Positions 1 to 31,722 are shown, counted from the first letter of the stretch. The stretch: 32,000 nt of DNA from Trichlorobacter lovleyi SZ (GCF_000020385.1 NC_010814.1:3540001-3572000); one strand, 5' to 3'. The notes: generated by a model not told the origin, from the letters alone. A program made the numbers and translations.

Positions 1-1034
1 GGCTTGATGATGATATCCCGTGCGCCGTATTTAAGCGCTTTTAGCACGGCAGTACGGGTCCATCTCTGGGCACACATAATTATCGGTACCGGCTGGTCCT
101 GGCGTAAGGCATTAATCTTGATACAAACCGCCAGTTCACGGTCGTCGGCATCCTGAGAGCCGATCACCACCAGCCGTACATTACCTTGCGAAAAGACCTC
201 CTTGACATCTGCGTTCAGGGTTGATTCTGCCAGTTTGAAACCGGAAAACTTCAGCGATTCCAACAGTTGCGCACGTTCCTCATCGCTGTCTTCAAAGACA
301 GCAATCATATCCTCACCGGTAGTACCGGCAATACCGCCAGCCTTGCGGAGCGGCACCTCCTCACCGGTTTCAGTCGAAATGCCGGATGCGACTACGGCAG
401 GCTCTCCGGCCTGCTCTGCGGCAATTTCTTCGGCAGGAGCAGCCGGGGGGGCTTCAGGCGGCGGATCATACTGATTCCCAAGCTCGACCGGAATCAGCAC
501 ATCCAGATGATGCATTTCCTGGCCTTCCATCTCCAGCCGGGAGCGAAACATCAGATAATCGCCATTAGGCAGGGGATCTTCATCAGTGAGCGGATCAATC
601 TCGGGGACATACTTCTTTGAACCGAGCAGCTTCAGGTGTGCCTTACCGGAAAGGGAGCCCTGGAAGATCGAATTCATGGCTCCATTGATCATATTCCCAA
701 TTTCGCCGAAGGCGTCGATGTCGTCAGGCTCAATGATGGACAGACGCTGTTTTTCCTTAATCCTCGGCGCCGGAATCCCTAACAGCAGACTACTCATCAA
801 AATGGCATCCCGCAGATTGAAGACCAGATGGAACTGACCGGGATACTCTTCCCGCGATTCAACAGCCAGCACGAAAACGCCGTCATCAAGATCGCCAAAG
901 TAGGCGGCCTTGCTAAAGGTCAAAGAATCCGTCAGGGTTGCAGTCAAACCCTGTCCCAACAGCATACCGGCCTCTTCACCGGCCTGCCGTAGAGCGGTCT
1001 CCAGCATTTCGTGCAGCTTTACATAACCATCCAT
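1..1034 (-). CDS. CheC/CheX-like domain protein with a C-terminal receiver-like domain (3' end runs off the left edge; at least 344 aa)
   Basis: Absent from the ORF track because there is no stop codon in the window. My manual minus-strand translation from the ATG at 1034-1032 stays open to position 1. It reads MDGYVKLHEMLETALRQAGEEAGMLLGQ...DAFGEIGNMINGAMNSIF (D-x3-E-x2-N, CheC/CheX-type signature), then a Pro/Ala-rich linker. The rest reads MIAVFEDSDEE...VRLVVIGSQDADD...PIIMCAQ...ARDIIIKP, a receiver-like beta/alpha pattern ending in KP. The + strand ORFs at 202-837 are antisense to it. Confidence 0.7.
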   Translation of the reverse strand, partial: MDGYVKLHEMLETALRQAGEEAGMLLGQGLTATLTDSLTFSKAAYFGDLDDGVFVLAVESREEYPGQFHLVFNLRDAILMSSLLLGIPAPRIKEKQRLSIIEPDDIDAFGEIGNMINGAMNSIFQGSLSGKAHLKLLGSKKYVPEIDPLTDEDPLPNGDYLMFRSRLEMEGQEMHHLDVLIPVELGNQYDPPPEAPPAAPAEEIAAEQAGEPAVVASGISTETGEEVPLRKAGGIAGTTGEDMIAVFEDSDEERAQLLESLKFSGFKLAESTLNADVKEVFSQGNVRLVVIGSQDADDRELAVCIKINALRQDQPVPIIMCAQRWTRTAVLKALKYGARDIIIK

Positions 1035-1066
1035 CAGGGGCTCGCGGGAGATACAGAGTGAGCTGC

Positions 1067-1090
1067 ACGGGGTGCACCTTCGCACCCCGT
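1067..1090 (-). other. Perfect 9-bp stem-loop in the cheX / downstream-gene spacer
   Basis: ACGGGGTGC-ACCTTC-GCACCCCGT. No U-tract follows on the transcribed (minus) strand, so it is not a classical intrinsic terminator. It could be an mRNA processing or stability element. Confidence 0.4.
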
Positions 1091-1108: not shown

Positions 1109-1627
1109 TTACTCTTCTTTCTTGAGGGTCAGACCAACCAGGAAGCGTTCACTGGCATCAACATTGAACGGAATTACCACACAATCGATGTCCGAAAGCG
1201 AGTTAACCGTGTAATCTTCGCCAGCAATCACCGTCGGAATGGAGAGTTTGACATCAAGCCCACCTTTGGAAAGAATCATTTTGACACTGCCACCCAGCAT
1301 ATTGGCAATCTCACCAATGGCGTCATTCAGGTCTTCTCCCCCCTCTTCAACCTCGCTCTCATCCATCCCCAGCATGGCGCCGGTGATTTTCTTCGCAAGG
1401 TGCATCGGGCAGTGCATGGAGATAACACCGGAATAGGTACCGGCAAAACCCACCATGCCGGTGATGCTGCATTTAAAATGGGTAATCGGCTCCTTGAGCG
1501 GAAAATCGTCGGCCGGCTCCATCATCACCATGGTGGAAAAAACTTCACGCGTGGCGTTGATAATGTACTCGGAAAGCTGCTGCTCCGAGAACTTGAGGCT
1601 ATCAGCAATCTCGGCATTCAGACTCAT
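1109..1627 (-). CDS. cheX: CheX-family CheY-P phosphatase
   Basis: 172-aa ORF. It carries NDAIGEIANMLGGSV (D-x3-E-x2-N) and has CheX-like size and layout. Its start overlaps the cheY stop by 4 nt (ATGA). Confidence 0.85.
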   Translation of the reverse strand: MSLNAEIADSLKFSEQQLSEYIINATREVFSTMVMMEPADDFPLKEPITHFKCSITGMVGFAGTYSGVISMHCPMHLAKKITGAMLGMDESEVEEGGEDLNDAIGEIANMLGGSVKMILSKGGLDVKLSIPTVIAGEDYTVNSLSDIDCVVIPFNVDASERFLVGLTLKKEE

Positions 1628-1992
1628 AGGAGTCCCCCAAGTTTTTCATTCAGCTGCTCAGGCGTAAAGGGTTTTTTGATGCTGTCCTTGGCACCGCTGG
1701 CAATGGCGTCGGCAATCACATCCTCGCCACCTTCAGTGGTTATCATGACGATCGGCATCGAGAACCCGTTGGCACGCACGGCCTTGACAAACTCGAGCCC
1801 ATCCATGTTGGGCATATTGATATCAGAAAGGATCAGGTCGACGGTTTTACCCGAAGTCTGCAGAACGTTCAGCCCTTCAATGCCGTCACCCCCCTCAAGA
1901 ATGTCGTCAACCGGCAGTCCTGCCTGACGTAGTGAGCGGGAAATTATCTTTCTCATAGTGGATGAATCGTCAACGATCAGGATGTTTGCCAT
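1624..1992 (-). CDS. cheY: Single-domain response regulator CheY
   Basis: 122 aa. MANILIVDDSSTMR (acidic pocket DD), LILSDINMPNMDG (phospho-acceptor Asp) and KKPF (conserved Lys). SD GGGAGGAA lies upstream. Confidence 0.9.
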   Translation of the reverse strand: MANILIVDDSSTMRKIISRSLRQAGLPVDDILEGGDGIEGLNVLQTSGKTVDLILSDINMPNMDGLEFVKAVRANGFSMPIVMITTEGGEDVIADAIASGAKDSIKKPFTPEQLNEKLGGLL

Positions 1993-2084
1993 ATACCTGT
2001 TCCTCCCTGTGCCCCCTGGGCCTTAATTGATTCGTATCATGCAATAGCAATGCTGCTATTTTTAACACAGCTTACACCCAAAAT

Positions 2085-3686
2085 TCAAACCCTGAATTTT
2101 CCCATCAGCCGCTGAAGCTCTTCAGCCAGACGGGACAGTTCCTCTGCAGAACGTGAGGAATCCTGTGCCTTGTCAGTGCTTTCCTGCACCACATCGGTAA
2201 TCTGGCGGATACTCTGACTGATGGAGTTGGTGGTGGCACTCTGTTCTTCAGCCGCTGTGGCAATCTGGCTCATCTGTTGGGTAACATTCTGTATTTCATT
2301 GGTTATAACCCCAAGTGCCTCACCGGATCGGCTGGCCTCCCGAGTACCGTTTTCAACCTCAGCCACGCCGTTTTCGATGGCCCGCACCGCGCCACCGGTC
2401 TCCTGCTGAATCATGCGGATCATATCACCAATTTCCTTGGTGGCCTTGGTGGTCCGCTCCGAAAGCGCCCGTACTTCATCGGCAACCACGGCAAATCCCC
2501 GTCCCTGTTCACCGGCACGGGCTGCTTCAATGGCAGCATTCAAAGCCAGCATATTGGTCTGATCTGCAATATCTTCAATGGTACCGACGATGGTACCGAT
2601 CTGGTTTGATTTTGCCCCCAGCTCTTCCACGTTGGCAGCAGCTTCACCAACCCGCTCTGCAATCCGCTGCATACCGGCAATGGTCTCCTGAATCACCCGC
2701 GCCCCGGTCTCGGTAGCCTGGTCCGCCTCAGCAGCACTTGCTGCAGAGCGGGTGCATGAGCTGGCGATCTCAAACGCAGTGGCAGACATCTCTTCTGCTG
2801 CTACCGCCACAGAAGCCGCCTGTCCGGCCATTTCTTCCGAACTTGCCACCATGGCCGAAGAATTACGCCGTACACTTTCGGCAACAGCCGTAACCTGACG
2901 GGCATTTGCTGCCACCTGCCCGATTATGACAGCCAGGTTCTCAACAAAGGTATTGAACCAGCCAGCCGTTTCACCGATCTCATCCCTGCTTGAAACCTCT
3001 ATCCGCTTGGTCAGATCACCTTCTCCGGTGGCAATATCCTTCAACCGCTCAGTCATGCTTGAAATTGATCTAAGTACCGGCAGCACGATAAAGAGCAACA
3101 ACACGACCTGTCCAATGGCCGATCCGACCAGAACAACCAGCATGATGGTCTTACCCTTGGCAATGGTGCTATCAAGTTCAGCACTGGCCTTCTTGTGCAG
3201 TGCTGCGGCAATTTTAGGGATGTAGTCTTCCAGCTGGGGCTGAAACTCATTGATGACATCACGCAGCTCTTCACGCCCTTCAATAACATCACCGCCGCCC
3301 TTAAAGGTCGCCACCAATCCCTTGAACTGCTCCACATAGGCCTTGCCAAGCTGCTGGGCCTTGGCGCTGTGCTCCTTGATCTTCTTGTCGACATTAACCT
3401 TGTCAAGCTGCTCAAGCACCTTGTAGACCTCACCCACCTCCTTCTCAACCCGGGCGGTCCACTTGTCGTCTTTACGGGTAAAAAACTCACCTTCATATTC
3501 GCGGGCCTTCAGCATATGAATCGAGCCCTGCATGGCAGCATGCTGAATCTTGGTGATCCGGTCCATCTGGTCCAGAGATGAGTTAATCTTGTAAAAGGTA
3601 AACAGCATCAACCCGGTGACCAACACCGCCACCCCAAGGAGAAAGGCAATTAATGCTGTCATCTTCTGTTTAATCGTAAAATTCAT
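2085..3686 (-). CDS. Methyl-accepting chemotaxis protein (two TM segments, periplasmic sensor, HAMP, MA signalling domain)
   Basis: 533 aa. There is an N-terminal TM helix and a second TM ([25 protein letters not shown]). A HAMP-like segment follows, then the highly conserved hairpin [48 protein letters not shown] lies upstream. Confidence 0.9.
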
Positions 3687-3788
3687 GACAAGGCAGCTCC
3701 TTTACGCTAAATGCTTATTTATCAACCAAAGGTAGTAGCATAAAAAGAGGTGATGTCAATCGCTAAAAGCACGCTGGAAGGGGATTGC

Positions 3789-4739
3789 ATGAAACAATCG
3801 CATCGTATAGCTCTGGGAGTCAGCAGTTGCCTGTTAGGCCAAAATGTTCGCTATGATGGCGGCCACAAACTGAACCACTACATCGCCGACCTGCTTTCAA
3901 TCTATTTTGACTTTGTTCCGGTCTGCCCGGAGGTTGAATGCGGCCTGCCAACCCCTCGCGAGGCGATGCATCTGACAGGCGACCCTGCAGCGCCCCGCCT
4001 GATCGCGGTCAGGACCGGACGTGATCTGACCGCACAGATGCACAGCTGGTCTGCGCAACGGATACAAGAACTGAAACCACTCCGGTTGCGCGGCTTTATC
4101 TTTAAAAAGAACTCTCCCAGTTCCGGACTGTTCCGGGTCAAGGTCTATCAGGACAAAGGCCCTCCACTCACCAGCGGCAGAGGATTATTCGCCCATGCCG
4201 TTACGCGTGCCTTTCCACTTCTACCGGTGGAAGAAGAGGGACGCCTTACCGATACCCGGCTGCGGGAGAATTTCATTGAACGGGTCTATGGATACGACCG
4301 CCTGTTAACCTTGCTTGACAGTAATCCGGCCAAAGCTGATCTGATCCAGTTCCACACGCTGCACAAGCTGCTGCTGATGGCCCATTCCCCTGATCACTAC
4401 CGGCGTCTGGGAAAACTGGTGGCCAGCACGTCCCCCGTTCATGCACTGCTGCCATCCTATGCGTCGCTGTTCATGGAGGCACTGCAACTGCTGGCGACGC
4501 CTGCCAAACAGACCAATGTCCTGATGCACTGCATGGGCTATTTCAAGAAACAGCTGGAAGCGTGGGAAAAGCAGGAGTTGCTGGAGTTGATTGAGCGTTA
4601 CCGCATGCAGCAGCTACCGCTGATTGTGCCGATCACGCTGCTTAAGCACCACATGCAACGTTTCGGCCAGCCGTATCTGGAGCAACAACTCTATTTTTCG
4701 CCCCATCCGGACGAGTTGATGCTCCGGAACCACGCCTAG
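3789..4739 (+). CDS. DUF523 (TudS-like, Cys-cluster) + DUF1722 (YbgA-like) fusion protein
   Basis: The N-terminus GVSSCLLGQNVRYDGGHK...VPVCPEVECGLPTPRE matches the DUF523 Cys pattern. The C-terminal half is helical and YbgA-like. I moved the start from the track's 3750 to the ATG at 3789, which has GGAAGGGG upstream. Confidence 0.75.
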   Translation: MKQSHRIALGVSSCLLGQNVRYDGGHKLNHYIADLLSIYFDFVPVCPEVECGLPTPREAMHLTGDPAAPRLIAVRTGRDLTAQMHSWSAQRIQELKPLRLRGFIFKKNSPSSGLFRVKVYQDKGPPLTSGRGLFAHAVTRAFPLLPVEEEGRLTDTRLRENFIERVYGYDRLLTLLDSNPAKADLIQFHTLHKLLLMAHSPDHYRRLGKLVASTSPVHALLPSYASLFMEALQLLATPAKQTNVLMHCMGYFKKQLEAWEKQELLELIERYRMQQLPLIVPITLLKHHMQRFGQPYLEQQLYFSPHPDELMLRNHA

Positions 4740-4767
4740 CCATTATGGCCAGGACCGTTCAAACCGG

Positions 4768-4795
4768 TTGCACACAGCCCCCTCTCTGGTATACT
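4768..4795 (+). promoter_or_regulatory. Sigma-70-like promoter for the cheY-cheC-DGC-cheA operon
   Basis: TTGCAC (4768-4773), 16-nt spacer, TATACT (4790-4795). It sits about 50 nt upstream of the ATG at 4846, which has an AAGGAG SD. Confidence 0.35.
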
Positions 4796-4845
4796 CACAC
4801 GCCAGACGGACAGGGCGGCTCGGGCTGCCCCAAAGGAGATAATCT

Positions 4846-5220
4846 ATGGCCAGGATTATGATTATTGATGACTCGCTTGTCGCCCGGATGAGTCTCAAGG
4901 CATGCATCCCTAAAGACGCGGGCCACGAGCTTACAGAAGGAAACGACGGCAGTGTCGCGATTGAGCTGTACCAGTCGTTCAAGCCGGATGTCACCTTCAT
5001 GGACCTTACCATGCCGGGGGTGGATGGAATCGTCGCCCTGGAGGCGATTCGCAGACTGGACCCGTCTGCCCGGGTGATCATCCTTACCGCTGATATCCAG
5101 CGCCGCACGATTGAACGGGTCACTGAGCTGGGGGCCTGTGCCGTCGTCAAAAAACCGCCGGCCAAAGAGGCCGTACTTGCAGAATTGGACAAGGTCCTGG
5201 CTGACGGTACAAAGCCATGA
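4846..5220 (+). CDS. cheY: CheY-like single-domain response regulator
   Basis: 124 aa. IMIIDDS, VTFMDLTMPGVDG, ILTAD and VVKKP are all present, so every canonical receiver residue is there. Confidence 0.9.
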   Translation: MARIMIIDDSLVARMSLKACIPKDAGHELTEGNDGSVAIELYQSFKPDVTFMDLTMPGVDGIVALEAIRRLDPSARVIILTADIQRRTIERVTELGACAVVKKPPAKEAVLAELDKVLADGTKP

Positions 5221-5858
5221 CCAACTCCACACGTGAACTGACCGAACTTGAAAAAGATGCACTGCAGGAGATCATGAACATCGGTTTTGGCCGGGCTGCT
5301 GCCGATCTGGCCGAGATCATCAACCTGCATGTAATCCTGTCTGTACCGCACATCGCTGTCCTGCAGTCGGACGAAGTGATCCGCTACGTACAGGAAGAGA
5401 TACCCGACACCACCGACATGAGCATGATCACCCAGTTTTTCAGTGGCAAGTTCAGTGGTGGCAGTTTCCTGGTTTTTCCCCACGGAGAAGGCCGTAAGCT
5501 TCTGAGAATTTTCGATGGGGAAATGTCTTTACTTGGTGAAAATTACGATATAGATATCCTTGAAAAGGAAACTCTGGTTGAGGTAGGAAACATCATTATC
5601 GGCGCCTGTGTCGGCAAGATTGCAGAGATGCTCGGAGATGTCGTCACCTACGCCCCCCCCCGCTTCTTTTCTCAGGAACAGATTTACGGCACCCTGGGAA
5701 ATGTTCTGAACACATCCGACTCTTTTGCGATTCTATTCAAGACCGTCTTTAATTTTGAGCAGTACAATGTCAGTGGCTACCTGTTTCTGGTCAGCCAATA
5801 CAGCATCATGCCATGGCTGAAACAGGCCATTGCAGAATTCCTGGGTCCTTATGAGTGA
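5217..5858 (+). CDS. cheC: CheC-type CheY-P phosphatase (two pseudo-repeats)
   Basis: 213 aa. Site 1 is D-ALQ-E-IM-N-x22-P (DALQEIMNIGFGRAAADLAEIINLHVILSVP). Site 2 is E-TLV-E-VG-N-x21/22-PP. The start overlaps the cheY stop by 4 nt. Confidence 0.8.
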   Translation: MTNSTRELTELEKDALQEIMNIGFGRAAADLAEIINLHVILSVPHIAVLQSDEVIRYVQEEIPDTTDMSMITQFFSGKFSGGSFLVFPHGEGRKLLRIFDGEMSLLGENYDIDILEKETLVEVGNIIIGACVGKIAEMLGDVVTYAPPRFFSQEQIYGTLGNVLNTSDSFAILFKTVFNFEQYNVSGYLFLVSQYSIMPWLKQAIAEFLGPYE

Positions 5859-6774
5859 GTACCACCAGATATTCAACACCATCAATCTCGGGTTGGTGGT
5901 ACTTGATCGCGAACTTACCGTTACCTGCTGGAACCGCTGGATGGAGTTGCACAGCGACATCCCGGCCGAGAGGATTATCGGCCGGAAAATCTGTGATGTC
6001 TTCCCTGCACTCTGCGAAAACAGCTTTATCCGGATTGTAAAAAGCGTCTTTGCCTTCGGCAACTACGCCTCATACTCGCAGAAGCTGCATAAATATCTCT
6101 TTCCCATGAAAAACCCCCATGGTTCATCTGCGTTATTCCCCCAGATGCAGCAAAACTGCACCTTTGGACCATTGCGGAATGACAACAAAGAGATTTCAGC
6201 CATCTACATCACGGTTCAGGATGTAACCGATTTTGTTATCTATGAACACAAACTGATTCAGATGGCCAAGGTCGACGGCTTGACCGGCGTCTTCAACCGC
6301 CGTTATCTTGACACCCGGCTTCAGGAGGAGCTGGAGCGTTCCCGGCGGCACGGCAATCCCTTAAGCATCATGATGCTTGATATTGACCACTTTAAAGAGA
6401 TCAACGACACCCATGGGCATATCTGCGGTGACTACACCCTGCGCAAAATTTCTGAACTGCTGCTGGAACTTGTACGGACCTCAGACATTCTCGGGCGTTA
6501 CGGCGGCGAGGAGTTTTGCTGCATCCTGCCGGAGACCTCGTTCGAGCAGGCCCTTGTGCTTGCCGAACGCTGTCGTACACAAGTTGCAGCCAGCCAATTT
6601 TCCTGTACCGATCACCAAAGCAGAGTGACCGTCAGCATCGGGGTGACCGACCTGCACCGTGACGACACCCTGGACAGTATTATCAAACGGGCAGACGACG
6701 CCCTCTATCAAGCGAAACGGACTGGCCGCAACCGGGTCTGCAGCTCTCCCGTACCAGTTGAAAATGCCACATGA
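5851..6774 (+). CDS. PAS-GGDEF diguanylate cyclase (no receiver domain)
   Basis: N-terminal PAS (LGLVVLDRELTVTCWNRWMELHSDIPAERIIGRKICDVFP). The GGDEF domain has an intact GGEEF and an RxxD I-site exactly 5 residues upstream (RTSD-ILGRY-GGEEF). Start set at the ATG at 5851 (MSEYHQ), overlapping the cheC stop by 8 nt; the track start at 5830 is also possible. Confidence 0.85.
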   Translation: MSEYHQIFNTINLGLVVLDRELTVTCWNRWMELHSDIPAERIIGRKICDVFPALCENSFIRIVKSVFAFGNYASYSQKLHKYLFPMKNPHGSSALFPQMQQNCTFGPLRNDNKEISAIYITVQDVTDFVIYEHKLIQMAKVDGLTGVFNRRYLDTRLQEELERSRRHGNPLSIMMLDIDHFKEINDTHGHICGDYTLRKISELLLELVRTSDILGRYGGEEFCCILPETSFEQALVLAERCRTQVAASQFSCTDHQSRVTVSIGVTDLHRDDTLDSIIKRADDALYQAKRTGRNRVCSSPVPVENAT

Positions 6775-8381
6775 TCGATGAATTAGCCGAGATACGGGAG
6801 GCCTTTGCCCTCGAATCGGTCGAGATGCTGGCTGAAATGGAATCGGCACTTCTGGCCCTTGAAACAGTTCCAGCGCTGGGAGACGACTTCAACCGCCTCT
6901 TCAGGGCAGTTCACACCATCAAGGGCTCTGCAAGTATTGTCTCCGCCGATCAGGTAGAGGCTTTCTGCCACGCCCTTGAACATCTGCTGGTGAAGGTCCG
7001 GGAACATGAACTGCCGCTGACAAAAGAGCTGTTCACACTCTGTCTGCAGTGTCACGACCATATCAGAAACCTGATCGTTGCCTTTGAATCGGCAGAGACA
7101 GAACTCCCCCCCCGCCATGATCAACTCCTGACCATGATTACCCGGTGGCAGCCACCTGACGTTATTGAAGCGGCAGTTCCAGCAGAACCGGATCTGTTGC
7201 AAACTGACGAGGTGAACACCGAAGAATCTGCTGCTTCTCAAAAAGTTGTCCGGGTTGACGCTCAAAAGCTGGACCAACTGATCAATCTGGTGGTTGAACT
7301 GGTTACCGCCTCTTCAGAACTGGAATCACACGTCAAGCAGACAGGCGACAATGCGTCCCTTGAATCAGCTGCTGCGGTCTCGCTGCTGGTTAAGAAGATT
7401 CAGGAACGGGCCATGGTGTTCCGCATGGTACCGGTGGGTGACCTCTTCCGGCGTTTTCAACGCCTGGTGCATGACCTGGCCGCTTCAAGCGGCAAAAAAA
7501 TCCAACTGATCATTGCCGGGGCCGACACCGAGCTGGACAAGGTTATGGCGGAGCGGCTGCGAGAGCCGCTGGTTCACCTGATCAGAAATGCCATAGACCA
7601 CGGCATTGAACCCCCTGCAGAACGGCAGGCAGCCGGTAAGCCGGCCACCGGCACCATCAGGATGAACGCCTTTCAGGAAGCCGGCAGTATTGTGATTGAG
7701 GTGCGGGATGATGGACGGGGCATCTGCCGGGAGCGGGTGCTGCAGCGTGCAGTTGAACGAGGGTTAATCCGGCCGTTGGAGGTGGTTGACCGTGATCCAT
7801 TGGCGCTGATCTTTGAACCTGGTTTTTCCACCACGGAAGAAGCCACTCTGCTTTCCGGACGCGGGGTGGGCATGGATGTGGTCAAACGGACCATTGAAGA
7901 GCTACGCGGCAAGATCGATGTCACCAGCAGCGAGGGACAGGGGGCCTGTTTTCAGCTCAGGTTGCCACTCTCACTGGCCCTGATTGACGGTTTTATGGTT
8001 ACAGTCGGAAATGACGCCTACATCCTTCCCATGGATCTGGTGGATGAGACCATTGATCTGCCGGCAGAGGCCGCTGCCGGGCTGCTGCTGCGCGGTTATC
8101 TGAATATTCGCGGCGAGGCATTGCCCTGCCTTGATCTGCGCGACATAGTCAAGCCTGCGGTCCCGGCACCGCTTTCACGCTTTATTGTAGTGGTCAAACA
8201 GGACGGACGACGGATCGGTCTGGCAGTCGACGTTCTGGTGGGCGAGGTCAAAGCGGTCATCAAACCGCTGGGACGGCTCTACCGGGATGCCCGCATCATC
8301 TCCGGAGCCACCATTCTGGGAGACGGTACCATCGCCCTGATTCTGGATCTGCCGGAGTTGTTACGAATACACGGCAGCTAA
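6771..8381 (+). CDS. cheA: CheA-type histidine kinase (Hpt-P3-HATPase-CheW-like; no obvious P2)
   Basis: 536 aa. Hpt motif FRAVHTIKGSASIV, N-box HLIRNAIDHGIE, G-boxes RDDGRGI / GRGVGMDVV, and a C-terminal CheW-like domain (ALIDGFMV...GATILGDGTIALILD). ATGA overlap with the DGC stop. Confidence 0.9.
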   Translation: MIDELAEIREAFALESVEMLAEMESALLALETVPALGDDFNRLFRAVHTIKGSASIVSADQVEAFCHALEHLLVKVREHELPLTKELFTLCLQCHDHIRNLIVAFESAETELPPRHDQLLTMITRWQPPDVIEAAVPAEPDLLQTDEVNTEESAASQKVVRVDAQKLDQLINLVVELVTASSELESHVKQTGDNASLESAAAVSLLVKKIQERAMVFRMVPVGDLFRRFQRLVHDLAASSGKKIQLIIAGADTELDKVMAERLREPLVHLIRNAIDHGIEPPAERQAAGKPATGTIRMNAFQEAGSIVIEVRDDGRGICRERVLQRAVERGLIRPLEVVDRDPLALIFEPGFSTTEEATLLSGRGVGMDVVKRTIEELRGKIDVTSSEGQGACFQLRLPLSLALIDGFMVTVGNDAYILPMDLVDETIDLPAEAAAGLLLRGYLNIRGEALPCLDLRDIVKPAVPAPLSRFIVVVKQDGRRIGLAVDVLVGEVKAVIKPLGRLYRDARIISGATILGDGTIALILDLPELLRIHGS

Positions 8382-8395
8382 ACAGAACTGACAGG

Positions 8396-8423
8396 CAATA
8401 GATCCAGCATTTGACATCTATTG
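8396..8423. terminator. Weak AT-rich hairpin between the convergent cheA and small ORF
   Basis: CAATAGAT (8396-8403), 12-nt loop, ATCTATTG (8416-8423), followed by TTT. The large loop and AT-rich stem make this weak support. Confidence 0.3.
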
Positions 8424-8433
8424 TTTCGCCGTA

Positions 8434-8604
8434 CTAAAGCTCTTTACGGTAGCGGATCAGCAGATACAACGATCCTGCCCCTGCAACCAGACAGCCGGTC
8501 TCCAGCAGCCAGTTCATCGGCTTATCCACCCCCAGGGTCATCATCGGATAGATCATCACCGAGATCAGGCAGTTAACTGCAATCAACGTCAGTAGCCATT
8601 TCAT
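8434..8604 (-). CDS. Small (56 aa) putative two-helix membrane protein
   Basis: Below the ORF-track size cutoff. My translation is MKWLLTLIAVNCLISVMIYPMMTLGVDKPMNWLLETGCLVAGAGSLYLLIRYRKEL, with two hydrophobic stretches. The ATG lies 4 nt after the phosphoglucomutase stop. The SD is weak. Confidence 0.4.
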   Translation of the reverse strand: MKWLLTLIAVNCLISVMIYPMMTLGVDKPMNWLLETGCLVAGAGSLYLLIRYRKEL

Positions 8605-8608
8605 CCCG

Positions 8609-10015
8609 TCATACTCCGGCTATCCGGTGTGCTGCCCGCAGCAGCGTATCAACCATGCCCGGCTCCCCTGCTTCACTGTAGAGGCGCAAAACCGGCTCAG
8701 TGCCGGAGGGGCGCACCAGCAGCCAGTCGCCATTATCAAACACAAACTTGAAGCCATCGCTAAAGTTGGTGGTGGCAACCGTCCGGCCTGCAATGGTCGC
8801 AGGCGGTTCGTTCCTCAAGCGCTGCAGCAACGCCTCTTTTGCCTCGCTACTGATATGGGTGTCAATCCGGCGGTAGTAAAAGTGGCCAATCTCATCCATA
8901 ATCTCTTCCAGCTGTTGACGCAGCCCCTTACCGGTCATTGCCACCGTTTCCAGCAACAAAAGCCCCATCAACACGCCGTCCCGCTCCGGGATATGGCCGC
9001 TGATACCCAGGCCACCTGACTCCTCCCCACCCATCAGGATCTGCTTCTCCAGCATCAGCTCGCAGATATGTTTGAAGCCAATCGGTGTCTCATACAGCGC
9101 CAGATCATATTTTCGGGCCAGCAGGTCAATCATGCGGGTTGATGAAACGGTCTTGACCACACCGCCTGACAGACCTTTGCGTTCCACCAGGTGTTTCAGC
9201 AACAGGGTAAAGATCGCATGGGATGAAAAGAACTCGCCGCGCTCATCCACCGCACCGATCCGGTCGGCATCACCATCCAGGGCCAGGCCGACCCGATAGC
9301 GGCCGGTTGCCAGCAGGCCGCACAACTCCTGCAGATTTTCGCCGATCGGCTCCGGCGGACGGCCACCAAACGAGGGATTCTGTTCAGCATGGATTTCATC
9401 AATTCCCAGCAGGCGCTTAAAAAAACCGCTGCCAGCCCCAAACATCGGGTCAGCCACAGCAGGTATAGCGGCCTTGCGGATCGCCTCAATATCAACCAGA
9501 TGACCAAGCTGTTGCAGATACCCGGTGGCGGCATCAACCTGCTCAATCCTGCCGCTACGAAAGGCTTCTTCAAACGGAACCGAACGGATCAGACGCCCTT
9601 CAGCCCTGTTGTAGGCTACAATCTGTTCCAGCAACCGGGTCGTTTCCGGACGCGCTGAGCCGCCAAAATTTTCCTTAATCTTAAAACCGTTATAGATTGG
9701 AGGGTTATGACTGGCCGTAATCATGACGCCAGCCCCGGCCTTCAGTTCTTTGGCCGCCCAGGAAACTGCCGGTGTCGGCGCCACCTCATCACACAAAAAT
9801 ACCCGGATATCATTGCCGGCTGCGACTTCAGCCACCCGGCAGGCAAATTCCCGCGACAGAAAACGCCGGTCATACCCTACCACCAGCCCTTGATCCGCCA
9901 ACCCCTCACGGGTCATCCAATCCATGGTTGCCTGGGCCACCAGCCCCAGATTATCAAAGGTAAATTCACGGGCAATCACCCCGCGCCAGCCGTCGGTTCC
10001 AAATTTTATTTCCAC
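8609..10015 (-). CDS. Phosphoglucomutase/phosphomannomutase family protein
   Basis: 468 aa. Active-site loop GVMITASHNPPIYNGFK, Mg-binding LALDGDADR, and GGEESGG. GTG start with GGAGGGGG SD. Confidence 0.9.
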   Translation of the reverse strand: MEIKFGTDGWRGVIAREFTFDNLGLVAQATMDWMTREGLADQGLVVGYDRRFLSREFACRVAEVAAGNDIRVFLCDEVAPTPAVSWAAKELKAGAGVMITASHNPPIYNGFKIKENFGGSARPETTRLLEQIVAYNRAEGRLIRSVPFEEAFRSGRIEQVDAATGYLQQLGHLVDIEAIRKAAIPAVADPMFGAGSGFFKRLLGIDEIHAEQNPSFGGRPPEPIGENLQELCGLLATGRYRVGLALDGDADRIGAVDERGEFFSSHAIFTLLLKHLVERKGLSGGVVKTVSSTRMIDLLARKYDLALYETPIGFKHICELMLEKQILMGGEESGGLGISGHIPERDGVLMGLLLLETVAMTGKGLRQQLEEIMDEIGHFYYRRIDTHISSEAKEALLQRLRNEPPATIAGRTVATTNFSDGFKFVFDNGDWLLVRPSGTEPVLRLYSEAGEPGMVDTLLRAAHRIAGV

Positions 10016-10060: not shown

Positions 10061-10336
10061 CTATTGTTTGCCCTCCATTTTATAGATCCATACCAGTATC
10101 TCGGCAACGGCTCGATAGAGCTCAGCCGGGATATGCTCATCCAGGTCAACCTGCATCAACAGGGTCACCAGTTCCGGTGACTCATGCACATAGACGCCTG
10201 CTTCCTTGGCACAGGCAATGATCGCCTCGGCCATGATCCCCTTCCCCTTGGCCACCACCACCGGCGCATAAAAGCCCTGCTTATAGGATAGCGCTGCTGC
10301 CATCCGCTGGTCATGCAGCTGACGTTCACGAGCCAT
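10061..10336 (-). CDS. FlhB C-terminal-domain-like protein (EscU/YscU/HrcU-type fragment, YlqH-like)
   Basis: 91 aa. AAALSYKQGFYAPVVVAKGKGIMAEAIIACAKEAGVYVHESPELVTLLMQVDLDEHIPAELYRAVAEILVWIY matches the post-cleavage FlhB-CC region. No NPTH motif and no TM domain. The start overlaps the upstream gene by 11 nt. Confidence 0.8.
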   Translation of the reverse strand: MARERQLHDQRMAAALSYKQGFYAPVVVAKGKGIMAEAIIACAKEAGVYVHESPELVTLLMQVDLDEHIPAELYRAVAEILVWIYKMEGKQ

Positions 10337-12446
10337 GTTTCACCACAATGTTCCCCGGATCAAAACCGGCTGCCAGCAGTTGTCCGTGCAACTCTCCGCG
10401 TTCCTCTTCCATCAGACTGGCTGTACCCTCATGCTCGGCACCGATCACCAGGTCCAGGCGGGTCCCGTTCAGACTCAAGGCGACCTCCACCCGTCCCAAC
10501 TGCGGCAGGGTCAAGGCCAGCGAGGTCTCCCAGGGGGTGGTCTGCTGTTCTTCGCTACCACTGCGCCCCCGCCCTTCCCGGTCCTTGATACGCCACTCCA
10601 TCGGCTGGCCGGGAAACAGTTCGCCATGAAACAGCAATTGACCGGTCTGCAGTGAGGCCAGCTGTTCCTTGACCATTGCAAGGGTACGGGGATCGCTCCC
10701 TTCCTCTCGGTGCAGCTGAGCTGAGCGGGCCTCCTGACTGCCCGGCTGTTGGGAAAGCTGTCCCTGCGGCTCCTGCAGCAGTTGTTCCAGGCTGTACTCG
10801 CCACTGAACCAGCGGGAAAGATGGGCCTCATAGAACAGGCCGCTCTCCTTCAACCCCTTGCGCAGCATCTGCTCCAGCTGAACCGGATCGGACGGAGCCC
10901 CCTGCAACAGGGTGCGCAGGATACCCAGCCCTTCCTTGAGGGGTGCCGCTTGATTCTGCATGCCCAGCAGGGTACTGACCCAGCGCCCGGTCTGGCTGAC
11001 CAGGGCATCGCCCCCCTTGCCGTAGCGCACCAGTAGAAAGGTGGCAGGATCTTCACCGATAAAGAACAGATTCAGATTGTCACCGACCTTCACTCCCTTG
11101 GGCAGCAGCACCGCCATGGCCTGACCACCCACCTGGACCATGAACCGGCCACCACCGAGGGACTGCAGCACATCACCGCGCAGTTGCTGACCGGCCTGGA
11201 ACCCCTTTAAGGCATCAGCGGAGACCTGGGGTTCAAGCAGGGTAAGACGGTTGCCCTGCATCAATGACTGCAGCAATTTCAGGACACTCTCATCTATTTT
11301 TCCGTCAGCGGCAGGTGCAGCACGGTTTTGCAGTGAACGTGCGGACAGATTGGCCGAGGCTCCGTAGGTCATCGCCTCGTCCAGAATGGCAGCCAGGGCA
11401 GAGGAGCCGGGCGGCAAACTGCTGACAACCTGCTGCAACCGTCCCATAACAGCACGCTGTGCCTCGCCCTGCCCTTCTTCCTTGCTTACCAGAGCACTGA
11501 GCCAACGGGCGGCATCACTTACATTGCTGGGCTGTTCCTGAACCGGCTGCCCCAACAGGGCAAAAACCAGCCTGGGCTGTTGCGTCACCAGTGCCAGTCG
11601 CAGTATTTCTCCCTGTGTCATCGGTTTTGACAGCTGCAGTTCCAGCGATTCGCCAGCCAACTGTACTAACACCCGCCCACCGGGTAAACGCCCCTGCACC
11701 AGGGCATTGGCCTCTTCACCGGGCTGCAACGGCAAAGGCGCCAGGGGCTGATTGGCCACATCCACCAGGGTCAGCCGCGCCCGCTGAGCAAGATTGAGCA
11801 ACATCTTCGCAGCAGCATCTTCAAAACCGCCGGTGGAACGTCCGGCAAGCCCTGCAGCGGTATTCGGCGTTTGACCGGACTCACCACCAACTGTCTGGGT
11901 AGGCCGCTCAAGCAGCCCGCCGGGCGGGACCACCACCGCGCGACCATCAGTACGATAGGTTAGAAAATCATCCAGAAAACCGGCCAACACACTGGTCTGT
12001 CCACTTGATTGGCGCAGCAGATCACCGATACTTTGCAGGGACGAGCGCTGGTGGGGTTCCATGAACTGCTCATTGGAGACCAGCAGAGACAGGAGCCGGG
12101 AGGCATCGGACAGGCTGACCGGCGGTGCGCTGACCCCTGGTCTGGCCAGGGCAAAGGTCGGACGGGGATCATTGCCGACAAAGGTCAGTTCAAGGTTTTG
12201 CCCCTGACGCACCGCCATCTGCAGATCAAGCTGCAGCTGCAACCCACCGATCTGAACCGGAATCTTGCCTGCCTGGGGCTGGCCGGTCACCTCGGCCGTT
12301 ACCCGCTGCCCCGGCGCAAGGGTAAGCGGCTGTTGGCTGACCCCAATCGTAGTCGGTTCAACAGGTTCTGCAGGTATTATCGCCAAGTTGGAACTGCGGG
12401 ACAGCAGGTCATAGACCTGCTGTTGTATGTCAGAGGGAAAGGCCAT
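10326..12446 (-). CDS. FliK-like (hook-length-control C-terminal domain) protein with three internal about 120-aa modules
   Basis: 706 aa, rich in Q/L/G/P. The C-terminus LALTLPQLGRVEVALSLNGTRLDLVIGAEHEGTASLMEEERGELHGQLLAAGFDPGNIVV follows the FliK C-terminal (Flg_hook) pattern. No SD precedes the ATG. Confidence 0.7.
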   Translation of the reverse strand: MAFPSDIQQQVYDLLSRSSNLAIIPAEPVEPTTIGVSQQPLTLAPGQRVTAEVTGQPQAGKIPVQIGGLQLQLDLQMAVRQGQNLELTFVGNDPRPTFALARPGVSAPPVSLSDASRLLSLLVSNEQFMEPHQRSSLQSIGDLLRQSSGQTSVLAGFLDDFLTYRTDGRAVVVPPGGLLERPTQTVGGESGQTPNTAAGLAGRSTGGFEDAAAKMLLNLAQRARLTLVDVANQPLAPLPLQPGEEANALVQGRLPGGRVLVQLAGESLELQLSKPMTQGEILRLALVTQQPRLVFALLGQPVQEQPSNVSDAARWLSALVSKEEGQGEAQRAVMGRLQQVVSSLPPGSSALAAILDEAMTYGASANLSARSLQNRAAPAADGKIDESVLKLLQSLMQGNRLTLLEPQVSADALKGFQAGQQLRGDVLQSLGGGRFMVQVGGQAMAVLLPKGVKVGDNLNLFFIGEDPATFLLVRYGKGGDALVSQTGRWVSTLLGMQNQAAPLKEGLGILRTLLQGAPSDPVQLEQMLRKGLKESGLFYEAHLSRWFSGEYSLEQLLQEPQGQLSQQPGSQEARSAQLHREEGSDPRTLAMVKEQLASLQTGQLLFHGELFPGQPMEWRIKDREGRGRSGSEEQQTTPWETSLALTLPQLGRVEVALSLNGTRLDLVIGAEHEGTASLMEEERGELHGQLLAAGFDPGNIVVKHGS

Positions 12447-16916: not shown

Positions 16917-17170
16917 CATTTGTTGTAAAGGCTGGGAAGAGGAGTAGTAACAGAGGTACATCCTTGAGAGAGCCGGTGGGTGGTGCGAACCGGTGGATGG
17001 AAACTGTGAACTCGCCTTGGAGCCGCTCCGGTGAACCGCCAGTAGTCGGAGACGAGTTATCCACGTAACGGATCAATTAAGGTTTGCAGCTCGCTGCAAA
17101 CGAAGTAGGGTGGTACCACGAAAGCTACGCGCCTTCGTCCCTGCAACAGGGCGGAGGCGTTTTTTATTTC
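16917..17170 (+). promoter_or_regulatory. T-box leader (tRNA-Leu sensing, specifier CUC) with intrinsic terminator
   Basis: AG-bay GAGAGAG (16966-72) and distal-loop-like GGTGGTGCGAA (about 16978-88). Specifier-loop GAA-CTC-G has CTC at 17011-13. The stem III hairpin is GTTTGCAG-CTCG-CTGCAAAC (17082-17101). The T-box sequence is AGTAGGGTGGTACCACG (17104-20), whose UGGU bulge can pair with an ACCA 3' end. A terminator follows. Confidence 0.75.
17130..17170 (+). terminator. Intrinsic terminator of the T-box leader
   Basis: CGCCTTCGTCCCTG-CAA-CAGGGCGGAGGCG followed by TTTTTTATTT. The 5' arm overlaps sequence that can alternatively pair with the T-box (antiterminator). Confidence 0.7.
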
Positions 17171-17196
17171 AGGACACCACACACAGGAGGTGGAGC

Positions 17197-18756
17197 ATGG
17201 CAAAGGCCAAGCAGTCAACAAAAGACGAGACACGGACAATCAAAATTTTTGACACCACGTTGCGGGATGGCGAGCAGGCACCGGGCAACAGCATGAATAT
17301 TGAGGAAAAACTACGCTTTGCCAAGCAGCTACAAAAGCTGAACGTAGACGTGATTGAGGCAGGCTTCCCGATCGCTTCAGAAGGTGACTTTGAGGCGGTC
17401 AAGAAAGTAGCCCAATCCATCAAGGGGCCTGAGATTGCCGGTCTGTGCCGCTCTAACCTGAAGGATATAGACCGGGCCTGGGAGGCACTGAAATACGCCG
17501 GTGAAAAAGGGCGGATCCACACCTTCATCGCCACCTCAGATATCCATATGAAGTACAAGCTGCAGATGGAACCGGCACAGGTACTGGAGTCAGCCGTCAA
17601 AGCGGTCAAGCGGGCTGCAGGCTATACCCCCAACGTTGAATTCTCCTGCGAGGATGCGGTACGGACCCAGCTGCCGTTTCTGGCCCAGGTGGTAGAAGCG
17701 GTGATCGCTGCCGGTGCCACCACGGTTAACATCCCGGACACCGTCGGCTACACGGTACCGTTTGAGTACTTCAATATCATCAAGTACCTGAAGGATAACG
17801 TGCCCAACATTGAAAAGGCCGTGATCTCGGTGCATTGTCACAATGACCTGGGGCTGTCGGTGGCCAACTCCATTGCAGCGATACAGGCCGGCGCCGGCCA
17901 GGTGGAATGCACCATCAACGGCATCGGTGAACGGGCCGGTAACTGTTCGCTGGAAGAGTTTGTCATGATCCTGCGGACCCGCCGCGACATCCTGCCCTTT
18001 GTCACCGGCATCGCCACGGAGCAGCTGACCCCGGCCAGCCGCCTGCTGACGAACATCACCGGCATTGCGGTGCAGCCCAACAAATCGGTGGTCGGTGCCA
18101 ACGCCTTTGCCCATGAGGCCGGCATTCACCAGCACGGCATGCTGATGGACAAATCCACCTATGAGATCATGACCCCTGAATCAGTCGGCCTGACTGCCAG
18201 CGCCCTGGTACTGGGCAAACACTCCGGCCGCCACGCCTTTAAAAAGCGGCTGGAGGAGCTGGGGCATGACCTGGATGACGAGATGTTGAACCGCGCCTTT
18301 GAACGTTTCAAGGCCTTGGCGGACCTGAAGAAAGAGGTCTTTGACGAGGACCTGGATGCGATTGTAACCGATGAATCACGGGAAGAGGATCAGTACAAGC
18401 TGGAACATATTACCGTGACCTGCGGTTCTTTTGCTGTGGCGACGGCTACGGTGCAGATGGAGATCAACGGCAAACCGGTTCGTACGGCTGAACTGGGGGA
18501 CGGACCGGTTGACTCCGCCTTCAAGGCGATCCGCAAGCTGACCAAAACCAAGGCCAAGCTGACCCAGTACAACGTCGGCTCGATCACCGGCGGCACCGAT
18601 GCCCAGGGCGAGGTAACCGTCAGAGTGGAAGAAGGCGGTCACACCGTGGTGGGCAAAGGGGCCTCAACGGATATCATCGTGGCCTCGGCCAAGGCGTACA
18701 TCCACGCCCTGAACCGGCTGCACTGCAAGCAGAAGCGTTTGACGGACGCTGTTTGA
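17197..18756 (+). CDS. leuA: 2-isopropylmalate synthase
   Basis: IKIFDTTLRDGEQAPG, HCHNDLGLSVANS and a C-terminal LeuA-dimer regulatory domain. Start moved from the track's 17110, which lies inside the T-box, to the ATG at 17197 with an AGGAGG SD. Confidence 0.92.
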   Translation: MAKAKQSTKDETRTIKIFDTTLRDGEQAPGNSMNIEEKLRFAKQLQKLNVDVIEAGFPIASEGDFEAVKKVAQSIKGPEIAGLCRSNLKDIDRAWEALKYAGEKGRIHTFIATSDIHMKYKLQMEPAQVLESAVKAVKRAAGYTPNVEFSCEDAVRTQLPFLAQVVEAVIAAGATTVNIPDTVGYTVPFEYFNIIKYLKDNVPNIEKAVISVHCHNDLGLSVANSIAAIQAGAGQVECTINGIGERAGNCSLEEFVMILRTRRDILPFVTGIATEQLTPASRLLTNITGIAVQPNKSVVGANAFAHEAGIHQHGMLMDKSTYEIMTPESVGLTASALVLGKHSGRHAFKKRLEELGHDLDDEMLNRAFERFKALADLKKEVFDEDLDAIVTDESREEDQYKLEHITVTCGSFAVATATVQMEINGKPVRTAELGDGPVDSAFKAIRKLTKTKAKLTQYNVGSITGGTDAQGEVTVRVEEGGHTVVGKGASTDIIVASAKAYIHALNRLHCKQKRLTDAV

Positions 18757-18770
18757 TTTCACGGAATCAC

Positions 18771-18795
18771 AGGGGCAGGTCTCAGACCTGCCCCT
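18771..18795. terminator. Bidirectional hairpin between the convergent leuA and sigma-54 activator gene
   Basis: AGGGGCAGGTC-TCA-GACCTGCCCCT, a perfect 11-bp stem. It overlaps the activator stop codon by 2 nt. The flanking U-tracts are poor. Confidence 0.55.
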
Positions 18796-21601: not shown

Positions 21602-21710
21602 CGCCACCCTCCTGAGTGTTTTAACTACACGCTTAAGATACACGCTATACACGACACAGGCAAGGACACAAGAGTTTACCGCCTGATACTGCTGTTCATA
21701 TTTCTAGCGA

Positions 21711-26987: not shown

Positions 26988-27113
26988 ATTCCAGTTTTAT
27001 AGCAAGGATGAAATCAAGGCGGCAAGGAGGTTGCGACGCAGGCGTATATGACAATACGTCGAGGAGCAACCGACGAAGCCAACGCAGATAGCGCCTTGAT
27101 AGAAAATTGGAAT
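26988..27113. repeat. 126-nt structured imperfect palindrome between convergent genes
   Basis: The outer arms ATTCCAGTTTTATAGCAAGG (26988-27007) and CCTTGATAGAAAATTGGAAT (27094-27113) are inverted repeats matching at 17 of 20 positions. An inner perfect 9-bp pair joins ATCAAGGCG (27013-21) and CGCCTTGAT (27092-27100). GGTTGC/GCAACC and CGTAT/ATACG helices lie inside. CAAGG occurs 3 times on the left side. Confidence 0.4.
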
Positions 27114-30960: not shown

Positions 30961-31722
30961 CTAGAAGTTGATGTCCAGTTGGGTAGTAAAGGTCGGTTTG
31001 CCGCCGTACAGGGTCTTCTGGAAGGGGTTGTAGAAGTTTGCGCCAACCAGCACAGAGACGTTTGGCGTAAAGGCCCAGGAAGCACCTGCAGAAAGCGCAC
31101 TGTAGTAGTTATTGCCGCCCATGTAGTCTACTGCCATCCAGAGTTTGTCAGAGATCTCACTCATGGTCCGGTCCCAGGAAACCAGCACGCCATTGTTGTA
31201 CTTATGGCCCAGGTTTTTCTCTGCCCCATTGTAACCACCTGCTGAAAGACGCCCAACTACCGGCAGGGTCTTGGCCACAAGTCCATACGCAACGTTGGAC
31301 ATGGTGTTGCCGGAAAGCCCGCGATCAAACGTACCGATACCATACATACCTGCAGCTAACGCCGGCATGCCTTTGAAGAAGGCATCTTCAGGAATGGCGC
31401 CTTTAAAGTTAAAGTAGATGGGATGCTTGCTGGCAATTGAATCATTGCCCTGAAGCCCGTCCGTCATGTAATCGACACCGATTTCCAGCTTGAATTTTTC
31501 AAAAGGGAGTACACCTACGGTCACACCGGCATCATAGGTATTAGCACCGGCATCGTTGGCATTCGAAAAACGGATATAGTTATCAATACTGATGTTGACC
31601 TCTTTGAAGCCTTTGGCATCGGTGGACGGAATCCAGATTTGTCCTGACGGTGTGGCCAGGGCTGCGGTAGCACAGGACAGGGTCAGGGCTGCTGCCAGGA
31701 TCATGCTGCGAACTGATTTCAT
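30961..31722 (-). CDS. Small outer-membrane beta-barrel protein (253 aa)
   Basis: Signal peptide MKSVRSMILAAALTLSCATAALA. Alternating aromatic/Gly-rich beta-strand pattern and a C-terminal ...TTQLDINF (terminal Phe). Strong GGAGGAG SD. Confidence 0.7.
   Translation of the reverse strand: MKSVRSMILAAALTLSCATAALATPSGQIWIPSTDAKGFKEVNISIDNYIRFSNANDAGANTYDAGVTVGVLPFEKFKLEIGVDYMTDGLQGNDSIASKHPIYFNFKGAIPEDAFFKGMPALAAGMYGIGTFDRGLSGNTMSNVAYGLVAKTLPVVGRLSAGGYNGAEKNLGHKYNNGVLVSWDRTMSEISDKLWMAVDYMGGNNYYSALSAGASWAFTPNVSVLVGANFYNPFQKTLYGGKPTFTTQLDINF

Follow-up and report, generated by a model that had tools for sequence, protein, structure and literature searches.

Known routes from chemotaxis-type kinases to cyclic diguanylate (c-di-GMP) lead through receiver-fused cyclases such as WspR of the Pseudomonas Wsp system (WspA-F, WspR), whose gene cluster also encodes a methyl-accepting chemotaxis protein (MCP), two CheW, CheR and CheB and, to our knowledge, no CheC. 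A small partner protein, made available or not by phosphorylation, switches the SiaD cyclase. In the Bacillus CheC protein binding outweighs catalysis, and phosphorylated CheY (CheY-P) strengthens the interaction of CheC with CheD (PMC3513319). In Shewanella oneidensis the stand-alone CheY3-P contacts receiver-less cyclases and controls biofilm formation (PMC7666153), and in Vibrio cholerae the c-di-GMP effector PlzC, a PilZ protein, binds and inhibits the CheX phosphatase (PMC12799141). Here we analysed a four-gene operon encoding a CheY, a CheC, a PAS-GGDEF cyclase and a CheA (positions 4846-8381) in a 32,000-nt stretch of the Trichlorobacter lovleyi SZ genome (GCF_000020385.1, NC_010814.1:3540001-3572000), hereafter the window, to which all positions refer. 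From its sequence and its relatives we put at about even odds (probability roughly 0.5) the reading that this operon is a chemotaxis-type phosphorelay with c-di-GMP synthesis as its output, relayed through CheC. Its parts are the following:

4828..4845, plus strand: ribosome-binding region of the operon, AAAGGAGATAATCT, before the cheY ATG
4846-5220, plus strand: cheY, single-domain response regulator of 124 aa (Pfam Response_reg, E = 3.5e-22)
5217-5858, plus strand: cheC, predicted CheC-type CheY-P phosphatase of 213 aa (Pfam PF04509 in two stretches)
5851-6774, plus strand: PAS-GGDEF cyclase gene (weak PAS_4 match and strong GGDEF match in Pfam)
5851..6225, plus strand: PAS domain of the cyclase, residues 1-125, of the CheC-associated PAS subfamily
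6226..6270, plus strand: PAS-to-GGDEF helical linker, residues 126-140, a helix by DSSP on the AlphaFold2 model
6265..6774, plus strand: GGDEF domain, short tail and stop, with a GGEEF active site (A-site) and an RxxD inhibitory site (I-site)
6771-8381, plus strand: cheA, P1(Hpt)-P3-P4-P5 histidine kinase of 536 aa without P2

A preliminary description of the window had seen four open reading frames (ORFs) chained by overlaps of 4, 8 and 4 nt, and the sequence bears this out at exactly these coordinates: cheY and cheC share an ATGA (4 nt), cheC and the cyclase gene share ATGAGTGA (8 nt, with the ATG at 5851 as the start), and the cyclase gene and cheA share another ATGA (4 nt). A mechanical ORF list starts the cyclase at a TTG at 5830; its homologues all begin at the Met of the ATG at 5851, which indicates that the 8-nt overlap is the real one. 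The canonical AGGAG lies about 7 nt 5′ of cheY only, and the three internal starts have no strong Shine-Dalgarno sequence. The lone Shine-Dalgarno at cheY is consistent with translational coupling of cheC, the cyclase gene and cheA, and the overlaps may imply a fixed stoichiometry of the four proteins. A promoter and terminator scan of 3600-8700 gave site counts no higher than in shuffled sequence, and Rfam found no riboswitch or other RNA leader 5′ of cheY, its sole match in the window being a T-box elsewhere.

The cyclase was matched by Pfam to PAS_4 (residues 8-63, weakly) and GGDEF (residues 139-295, E = 1e-49) and to TIGR00254 (GGDEF part, E = 7e-56), and Pfam returned no Response_reg match, leaving PAS and GGDEF as its only domains. 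A cyclase with intact GGEEF and RxxD motifs and a PAS domain in place of a receiver, as described earlier, was thereby confirmed, both by Pfam and by the PAS fold of its AlphaFold2 (AF2) model. Its translation reads RTSD-x5-GGEEF, and 48 homologues all share R209 and D212 (I-site), G218-F222 (GGEEF), the Mg-binding D177 and D179 and the guanine-contacting N185 and D194. By these residues the protein should be an active, product-inhibited, GTP-specific diguanylate cyclase. Hypr GGDEF proteins, the cyclic GMP-AMP (cGAMP) synthases of Geobacter type, bear as their signature a Ser in place of the guanine-specific Asp (the PleD D344 position); this identity was ruled out because Asp194 is present in NDTHGHICGD and invariant in the family. 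The AF2 model (mean predicted local distance difference test score, pLDDT, 89.8) comprises a PAS fold, a helix at residues 126-140 and a GGDEF domain, and Foldseek matched it to PA0861 (PAS-GGDEF-EAL), a LOV-cyclase, PleD, WspR and SiaD-SiaC.

The PAS domain belongs to a subfamily with its own signature (WNRWM, FGN[YF]x[FY]SQKLH, MQQxCxxGP[LI]R and QDVT). Its most conserved stretch, residues 76-101 (SQKLH...MQQ), is mostly non-regular and lies between a short strand (73-75) and a longer one (101-109); a partner might dock on it, or it might close over a ligand as a lid. In or beside this segment stand His80, which never varies, and Cys103, which seldom does; M99 is invariant too. The nearest folds are LOV, FAD (flavin adenine dinucleotide) and heme PAS domains, with only 12-20% identity to the LOV, NifL and FixL types. 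LOV PAS domains carry an NCRFL-type motif and heme PAS domains a His on the F-alpha helix; in the cyclase sequence we recognised no cofactor-ligating motif and found no LOV-type NCRFL motif. An EcDOS-type heme PAS, in which His and Met stand 18-19 residues apart as do the invariant H80 and M99, was considered and set aside because the modelled H80 is non-regular and follows the F-alpha helix (57-69), which is a weak argument.

To survey the gene order, an alignment of the CheC subfamily was searched against 185,579 species genomes, in which 166 relatives were found and 80 loci kept; mapping the window proteins onto these and five earlier loci gave 82 non-redundant loci. The same PAS subfamily stands in the CheC cluster in 67 of them. 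The full order CheY-CheC-PAS-GGDEF-CheA occurs in 17 (Geobacter/Trichlorobacter, Chrysiogenes arsenatis, Desulfuromonadaceae and Spirochaetota), and CheY-CheC-PAS-GGDEF without an adjacent CheA in 12 with enough flank, plus five ending at a contig edge (taxa include Geomonas, Desulfobacterales and Candidatus Anammoxibacter). A further 23, mostly from Smithella and other Syntrophales, have the order PAS-GGDEF-CheY-CheC (three with a divergent CheA); six read CheY-CheC-PAS-x-CheA; and four break off at the contig edge within a PAS gene that comes after CheC, L017, L019 and L020 among them having no stand-alone CheY. The CheC-PAS pair spans Desulfobacterota, Chrysiogenota, Spirochaetota and Planctomycetota. 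Proteins of metagenome-assembled genomes named Geobacter and Trichlorobacter share 91-94% identity with the window CheC. Trichlorobacter thiogenes ATCC BAA-34 (L006) has the same operon, its CheC being 92% identical, and one metagenome contig (L092) encodes all four operon proteins at 99-100% identity.

The reverse test started from the PAS domain alone, with which a metagenome scan returned 80 loci, 70 of them informative. CheC lies immediately upstream in 66, the Smithella order is present in three and cut in one, and ten are cut upstream, so that CheC stands beside PAS in 69-70 of the 70 informative loci. Three of three arbitrarily chosen PAS-GGDEF homologues on long contigs were likewise found behind REC-CheC, amid unrelated housekeeping genes. 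Where PAS follows CheC, the two genes overlap by 4, 8 or 14 nt, across phyla and with two loci as the only exceptions, 8 nt being the commonest. The preliminary description had reasoned that relatives' operons lacking the cyclase would point to a fortuitous insertion; a PAS-output gene is kept in 67/82 genome loci, CheC adjoins PAS in 69-70/70 metagenome loci, and the cyclase in the operon is not a chance insertion, the arrangement being retained in about 150 independent loci, far beyond chance. The gene-order survey that it called for upheld CheY-CheC-PAS-output and left out CheA as a fixed part, which is adjacent in about 37 of the 82 genome loci. In 26 genome loci with sufficient flanking sequence, and in most metagenome loci within 3.5 kb, no cheA adjoins PAS-GGDEF.

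What follows the PAS domain varies. An exhaustive HMMER search with the 135-residue domain yielded 259 cluster representatives at E <= 1e-10; in the close matches it almost always forms residues 1-135 of proteins of 200 to 900 residues, and it remains 40-60% identical across differing output fusions. By Pfam these fusions are to GGDEF, to GGDEF-EAL, to HisKA-HATPase-REC with or without further REC-Hpt, and to cNMP_binding with PatA_N (as in L089, which reads REC-CheC-PAS-cNMP-PatA_N); others are to extra PAS domains with a histidine kinase, and to a domain with four cysteines (4-Cys). Among the HMMER-set loci CheC precedes the PAS-output gene wherever upstream DNA is visible, whatever the output. 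The locus L091:2-3284, cut upstream, has a CheC 63% identical to that of the window in 8-nt overlap with a PAS-hybrid kinase, and L017:1-3859 encodes a hybrid kinase ending in Hpt, a CheC and a PAS-HisKA-HATPase-REC protein, without a stand-alone CheY. The kinase of the cassette is likewise interchangeable, always with an Hpt domain, be it the P1 of CheA or that of an Hpt hybrid kinase (L017, L034).

In the PAS-4Cys family (P0121-P0150; L005:7638-8249; L101-L106) proteins of about 203 aa carry a 4-Cys domain of about 65 residues, IPICxYCKKIRDDxxSWQQ..Y..HS.A.FSHGICP[DE]C, in place of GGDEF, and the "PAS-x" proteins of the six genome loci above belong to it and are not truncated cyclases. The 4-Cys domain has no Pfam or NCBIfam model; it was modelled by AF2 with a pLDDT of only 57-67, Foldseek matches being confined to the PAS part, and the linker helix (126-153) is longer than that of the cyclase (126-140). 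In 12 of 12 loci the PAS-4Cys gene lies between cheC and cheA, with cheA directly downstream. Two variants were seen besides. Trichlorobacter and Geobacter have a paralogous cassette (L017, L019, L091) whose CheC is 60-63% identical and overlaps by 8 nt with PAS-HisKA-HATPase-REC(-REC-Hpt), and L034:1279-7074 encodes a dCache-PAS-PAS-HisKA-HATPase-REC-REC-Hpt kinase, CheY and CheC, then a 211-aa REC protein that replaces the PAS-output gene.

Since CheC-PAS persists in L017, L019 and L020, which have no stand-alone CheY, it is CheC and not CheY that is the constant partner of the PAS domain. The invariant core is CheC plus a PAS-output protein, usually with CheY, and CheA is accessory; the overlapping CheC-PAS pairing is near-obligate, with swappable outputs and kinases.

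The other three proteins of the operon retain their catalytic motifs. CheY has D8, D9, D53, T81 and K102 intact; none of the equivalents of D12, D13, D57 and K109 varies across 56 family members, and that of T87 is T or S. The position of E. coli Y106 is Val in the window CheY and V, L, I or T in the 56, aromatic in none. CheY proteins that bind the motor carry an aromatic residue at this place, and this CheY is therefore probably not motor-directed, an indication, not proof, against a flagellar-motor output with FliM as target. The preliminary description was right that CheC keeps both phosphatase sites: the translation contains D14-x3-E18-x2-N21-x22-P44 and E118-x3-E122-x2-N125-x22-P148, and 17 diverse homologues all retain D14, E18, N21, P44, E118, E122, N125 and P147/148. 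Its profile matches the T. maritima CheC structures 1XKR and 2F9Z (E = 3e-17, residues 7-194), and it scores E = 5.6e-15 against NCBIfam CheC_Thtogales, below the equivalog cut-off. A natural fusion of an N-terminal REC with a C-terminal CheC of this subfamily occurs in P0112 (338 aa). CheA comprises Hpt (7-99), H-kinase_dim (158-215), HATPase_c (262-401) and CheW-like (407-532) domains in Pfam, carries the HxxKG-type phospho-acceptor motif VHTIKGSA in its translation, and matches NCBIfam CheA PRK10547 (E = 1e-109, below its cut-off). Pfam gave no match to a P2 CheY-docking domain at E <= 0.01, and the Hpt-to-P3 linker of 58 residues leaves no room for one, in agreement with the earlier account of a CheA with Hpt, kinase and CheW-like domains that lacks P2.

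From domain content and comparative genomics we infer phosphotransfer, a CheC-PAS contact and an effect on the cyclase, in the following order. CheA would autophosphorylate on its Hpt domain (P1), possibly on input from a neighbouring MCP through a CheW encoded elsewhere, and would hand the phosphoryl group to the stand-alone CheY. CheY-P would then bind CheC, and CheC, alone or as CheC:CheY-P, would engage the N-terminal PAS domain of the cyclase, altering the dimer of PAS and linker helix and hence GGDEF activity. The two phosphatase sites of CheC would hydrolyse CheY-P and so reset the signal, to which the RxxD I-site would add product inhibition.

The MCP in question belongs to three genes on the other strand:

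2085-3686, minus strand: MCP (Pfam MCPsignal and HAMP)
1624-1992, minus strand: second CheY (Pfam Response_reg)
1109-1627, minus strand: CheX (Pfam CheX)

This divergent MCP-CheY-CheX cluster (1109-3686) lies 1.1 kb upstream of the operon and occupies the same position in the Trichlorobacter/Geobacter loci L006-L016, L039 and L093-L100; the operon locus thus has two CheY proteins and, for each of them, a separate phosphatase of the CheC family. The statement that the operon has no MCP, CheW, CheR or CheB is true of the operon itself and is qualified by this upstream MCP, with which it is not necessarily receptor-less. The cluster may supply receptor input to the operon, and in related loci, such as L005 and L033, an MCP and/or a CheW is adjacent. 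None of CheW, CheR, CheB and CheD was found among the scanned ORFs of the window; CheR and CheB are maybe encoded elsewhere in the genome. Directly downstream of cheX an ORF runs off the left edge of the window (1-1085, minus strand), with a CheX-like ExxN stretch, DAFGEIGNMINGA, a weak BLASTP match to the window CheX (E = 0.002) and, at its C-terminus, a REC-like match below threshold (Pfam E = 0.0085).

Several observations weigh against a relay through CheC. Adjacency is functional linkage, and it leaves the direction of the signal and physical contact undecided. A PAS domain with His80 and Cys103 may bind a cofactor or ligand and could be its own sensor. Neither the 120 listed cyclase homologues nor the scanned PAS representatives included a natural CheC-PAS fusion, and the mirror-tree correlations of CheY, CheC, PAS and GGDEF are all about 0.88-0.92, with partial ones similar, so that no pair stands out. 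CheY-CheC occurs without any PAS partner in about nine genome loci, among them the close relatives L011 and L016, which lost the cyclase and keep CheY-CheC-CheA, from which it follows that CheY-CheC can work without it. The sites concerned are L011:940-1000 and L016:6628-6705; in L011 about 45 nt resembling the 3′ end of the cyclase gene remain just before cheA, and the absence is therefore a secondary deletion.

The signal could, in the first place, run the other way. The PAS domain would then be a ligand, redox or cofactor sensor that switches its own output in cis and the CheC phosphatase in trans, and a single stimulus would raise c-di-GMP and lower CheY-P, with CheY acting on another target. 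A PAS domain placed ahead of a GGDEF or histidine-kinase module is classically a sensor, the folds nearest to the one here are of that kind, the segment 76-101 with His80 and Cys103 is strongly conserved, and CheC adjacency fits equally well; in PlzC-CheX, moreover, a partner protein is already known to modulate a phosphatase of the CheC family (PMC12799141). We nevertheless regard reversed flow as doubtful, if worth serious attention. No cofactor signature was recognised, His80 comes after helix 57-69 and is non-regular in the AF2 model, the frequent Hpt kinase and the dedicated CheY are left unexplained, and the cassette encodes no alternative target for a CheY that lacks the aromatic switch residue. 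The first option of the preliminary description, in which CheY-P binds the PAS domain or cyclase directly and CheC is a dedicated phosphatase that shortens the signal, appears unlikely for other reasons: L017, L019 and L020 keep CheC-PAS with its 8-nt overlap in the absence of a stand-alone CheY, the tight overlapping junction is that of cheC and PAS where PAS follows CheC, and the number of informative PAS-bearing loci without CheC is zero. These outweigh for us the presence of CheY in the great majority of loci, the correlation of the CheY and PAS distance matrices (r = 0.91) and the contact of Shewanella CheY3-P with receiver-less cyclases (PMC7666153). With CheC as the constant partner of the PAS domain, the CheC:CheY-P complex, which the same description had proposed as its other option, is favoured.

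We give little credence to a third possibility, that the PAS protein acts on CheA, either as a soluble receptor substitute or through CheD-like feedback in a loop CheA -> CheY-P -> CheC -> PAS -> CheA, with GGDEF as a side output. The operon does lack MCP and CheW, its cyclase gene overlaps cheA by 4 nt, and the PAS-4Cys genes, which encode no enzymatic output, have cheA immediately downstream in all 12 loci. Yet most PAS-GGDEF loci are without an adjacent cheA, an MCP adjoins the operon throughout the Geobacter/Trichlorobacter clade, and CheA keeps its P5 CheW-like domain, which usually serves receptor-array coupling. The CheC-CheD loop of Bacillus, which feeds back on kinase activity (PMC3513319), would be its model. 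Mere co-expression, in which an independent PAS-sensor cyclase rides in a che operon with no coupling at the protein level, would suit the commonness and mobility of cyclase genes, the two further PAS-GGDEF-EAL genes of the window and the loss of the cyclase from L011 and L016 with the other three genes kept. It is very improbable, since CheC-PAS co-occurrence is near-obligate in both directions and across phyla, the overlapping junction is conserved, and the pairing holds for one PAS subfamily whatever its output, even without cheA and amid unrelated housekeeping genes; the specificity of the CheC-PAS pairing argues strongly against it.

Elsewhere in the window, two tandem PAS-GGDEF-EAL genes (21759-23891 and 23944-26841, plus strand) follow a GAF-sigma54 activator gene just upstream (18794-21652, minus strand), which makes the window rich in c-di-GMP genes. 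The T-box leader (16925-17145, plus strand; Rfam RF00230, 122.5 bits, E = 6e-27) directly precedes a LeuA/HMGL-like synthase gene (17110-18756), whose annotated start it overlaps. The 706-aa product of a gene at 10326-12446 (minus strand) has a FliK hook-length-control domain at its C-terminus; the gene is flanked by phosphoglucomutase and glycogen-phosphorylase-like genes, with no other flagellar genes nearby. Two ORFs (27113-28954, 613 aa, and 30961-31722, 253 aa, both minus strand) had no Pfam match at E <= 0.01.

Relay through CheC in this operon may be one case of something broader. CheC and its dedicated N-terminal PAS domain might form a general signal-transfer module, with CheC as an adaptor reading CheY-P or REC-P from any Hpt donor; we advance this tentatively, as somewhat less probable than not. 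If it is true, the PAS domain would drive any fused output, and the 4-Cys form may feed back on CheA; chemosensory pathways and phosphorelays would gain a new output class, in at least four phyla; a role for CheC proteins without CheD would be explained; and PAS domains could act as protein-signal receivers for a phosphatase adaptor. Hundreds of natural CheC-PAS sequence pairs are available and usable for co-evolution analysis. The cassette is present in metal-reducing and syntrophic Desulfobacterota, in which c-di-GMP is linked to biofilm formation.

The searched full-text literature does not describe a CheY-CheC-PAS-GGDEF cassette, although it may have been mentioned earlier, and surveys of Geobacter and Desulfuromonas chemotaxis contain no description of it either. 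Among described cyclases, SiaD-SiaC (7e6g), LOV-GGDEF (8c05) and PA0861 (5xgb) share the PAS-helix-GGDEF architecture or the GGDEF fold by Foldseek. The Sia system differs in that a Ser/Thr partner switch governs SiaC, an unrelated protein. In LOV and heme PAS cyclases a cofactor detects light or gas, whereas no cofactor motif was recognised here and it is the neighbouring CheC that defines the PAS subfamily. CheC itself is homologous to that of the CheC-CheD-CheY-P systems of B. subtilis and T. maritima, with both active sites. The proposed relay would, by analogy, copy the CheC-CheD logic, the PAS-output protein standing in for CheD; its partner would be a PAS-output protein and not the CheD deamidase, and its output an enzyme or kinase and not receptor modification. 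A CheD beside CheC, as in the Bacillus-type class I arrangement, was not seen, no annotated ORF of the window having a CheD domain. PlzC-CheX resembles the proposal in that a CheC/CheX-family phosphatase ties CheY-P turnover to c-di-GMP through partner contact; there, however, the partner is a PilZ effector, not a cyclase, and no conserved overlapping gene pair is involved.

With Wsp the operon shares, on our reading, a CheA-type kinase controlling a GGDEF cyclase with RxxD, and c-di-GMP as output, and the GGDEF fold of the cyclase matches WspR (3bre, 3i5a-c) by Foldseek. WspR has its own receiver and is phosphorylated directly, whereas the cyclase here has a PAS domain and no receiver, and the operon is without MCP, CheW, CheR and CheB and has CheC and a stand-alone CheY. 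The claim of a wiring unlike known Che-to-c-di-GMP systems is sound as regards Wsp and loses ground to the precedent of Shewanella CheY3 (PMC7666153). In Shewanella, however, the cyclase genes are unlinked, CheC is not involved and the route is independent of CheA3, whereas here the genes form an overlapping operon in which CheC is a conserved neighbour. Should CheC convey the CheY-P state to the PAS domain, the cassette would be a second, modular route from kinase to c-di-GMP beside receiver-fused cyclases like WspR.

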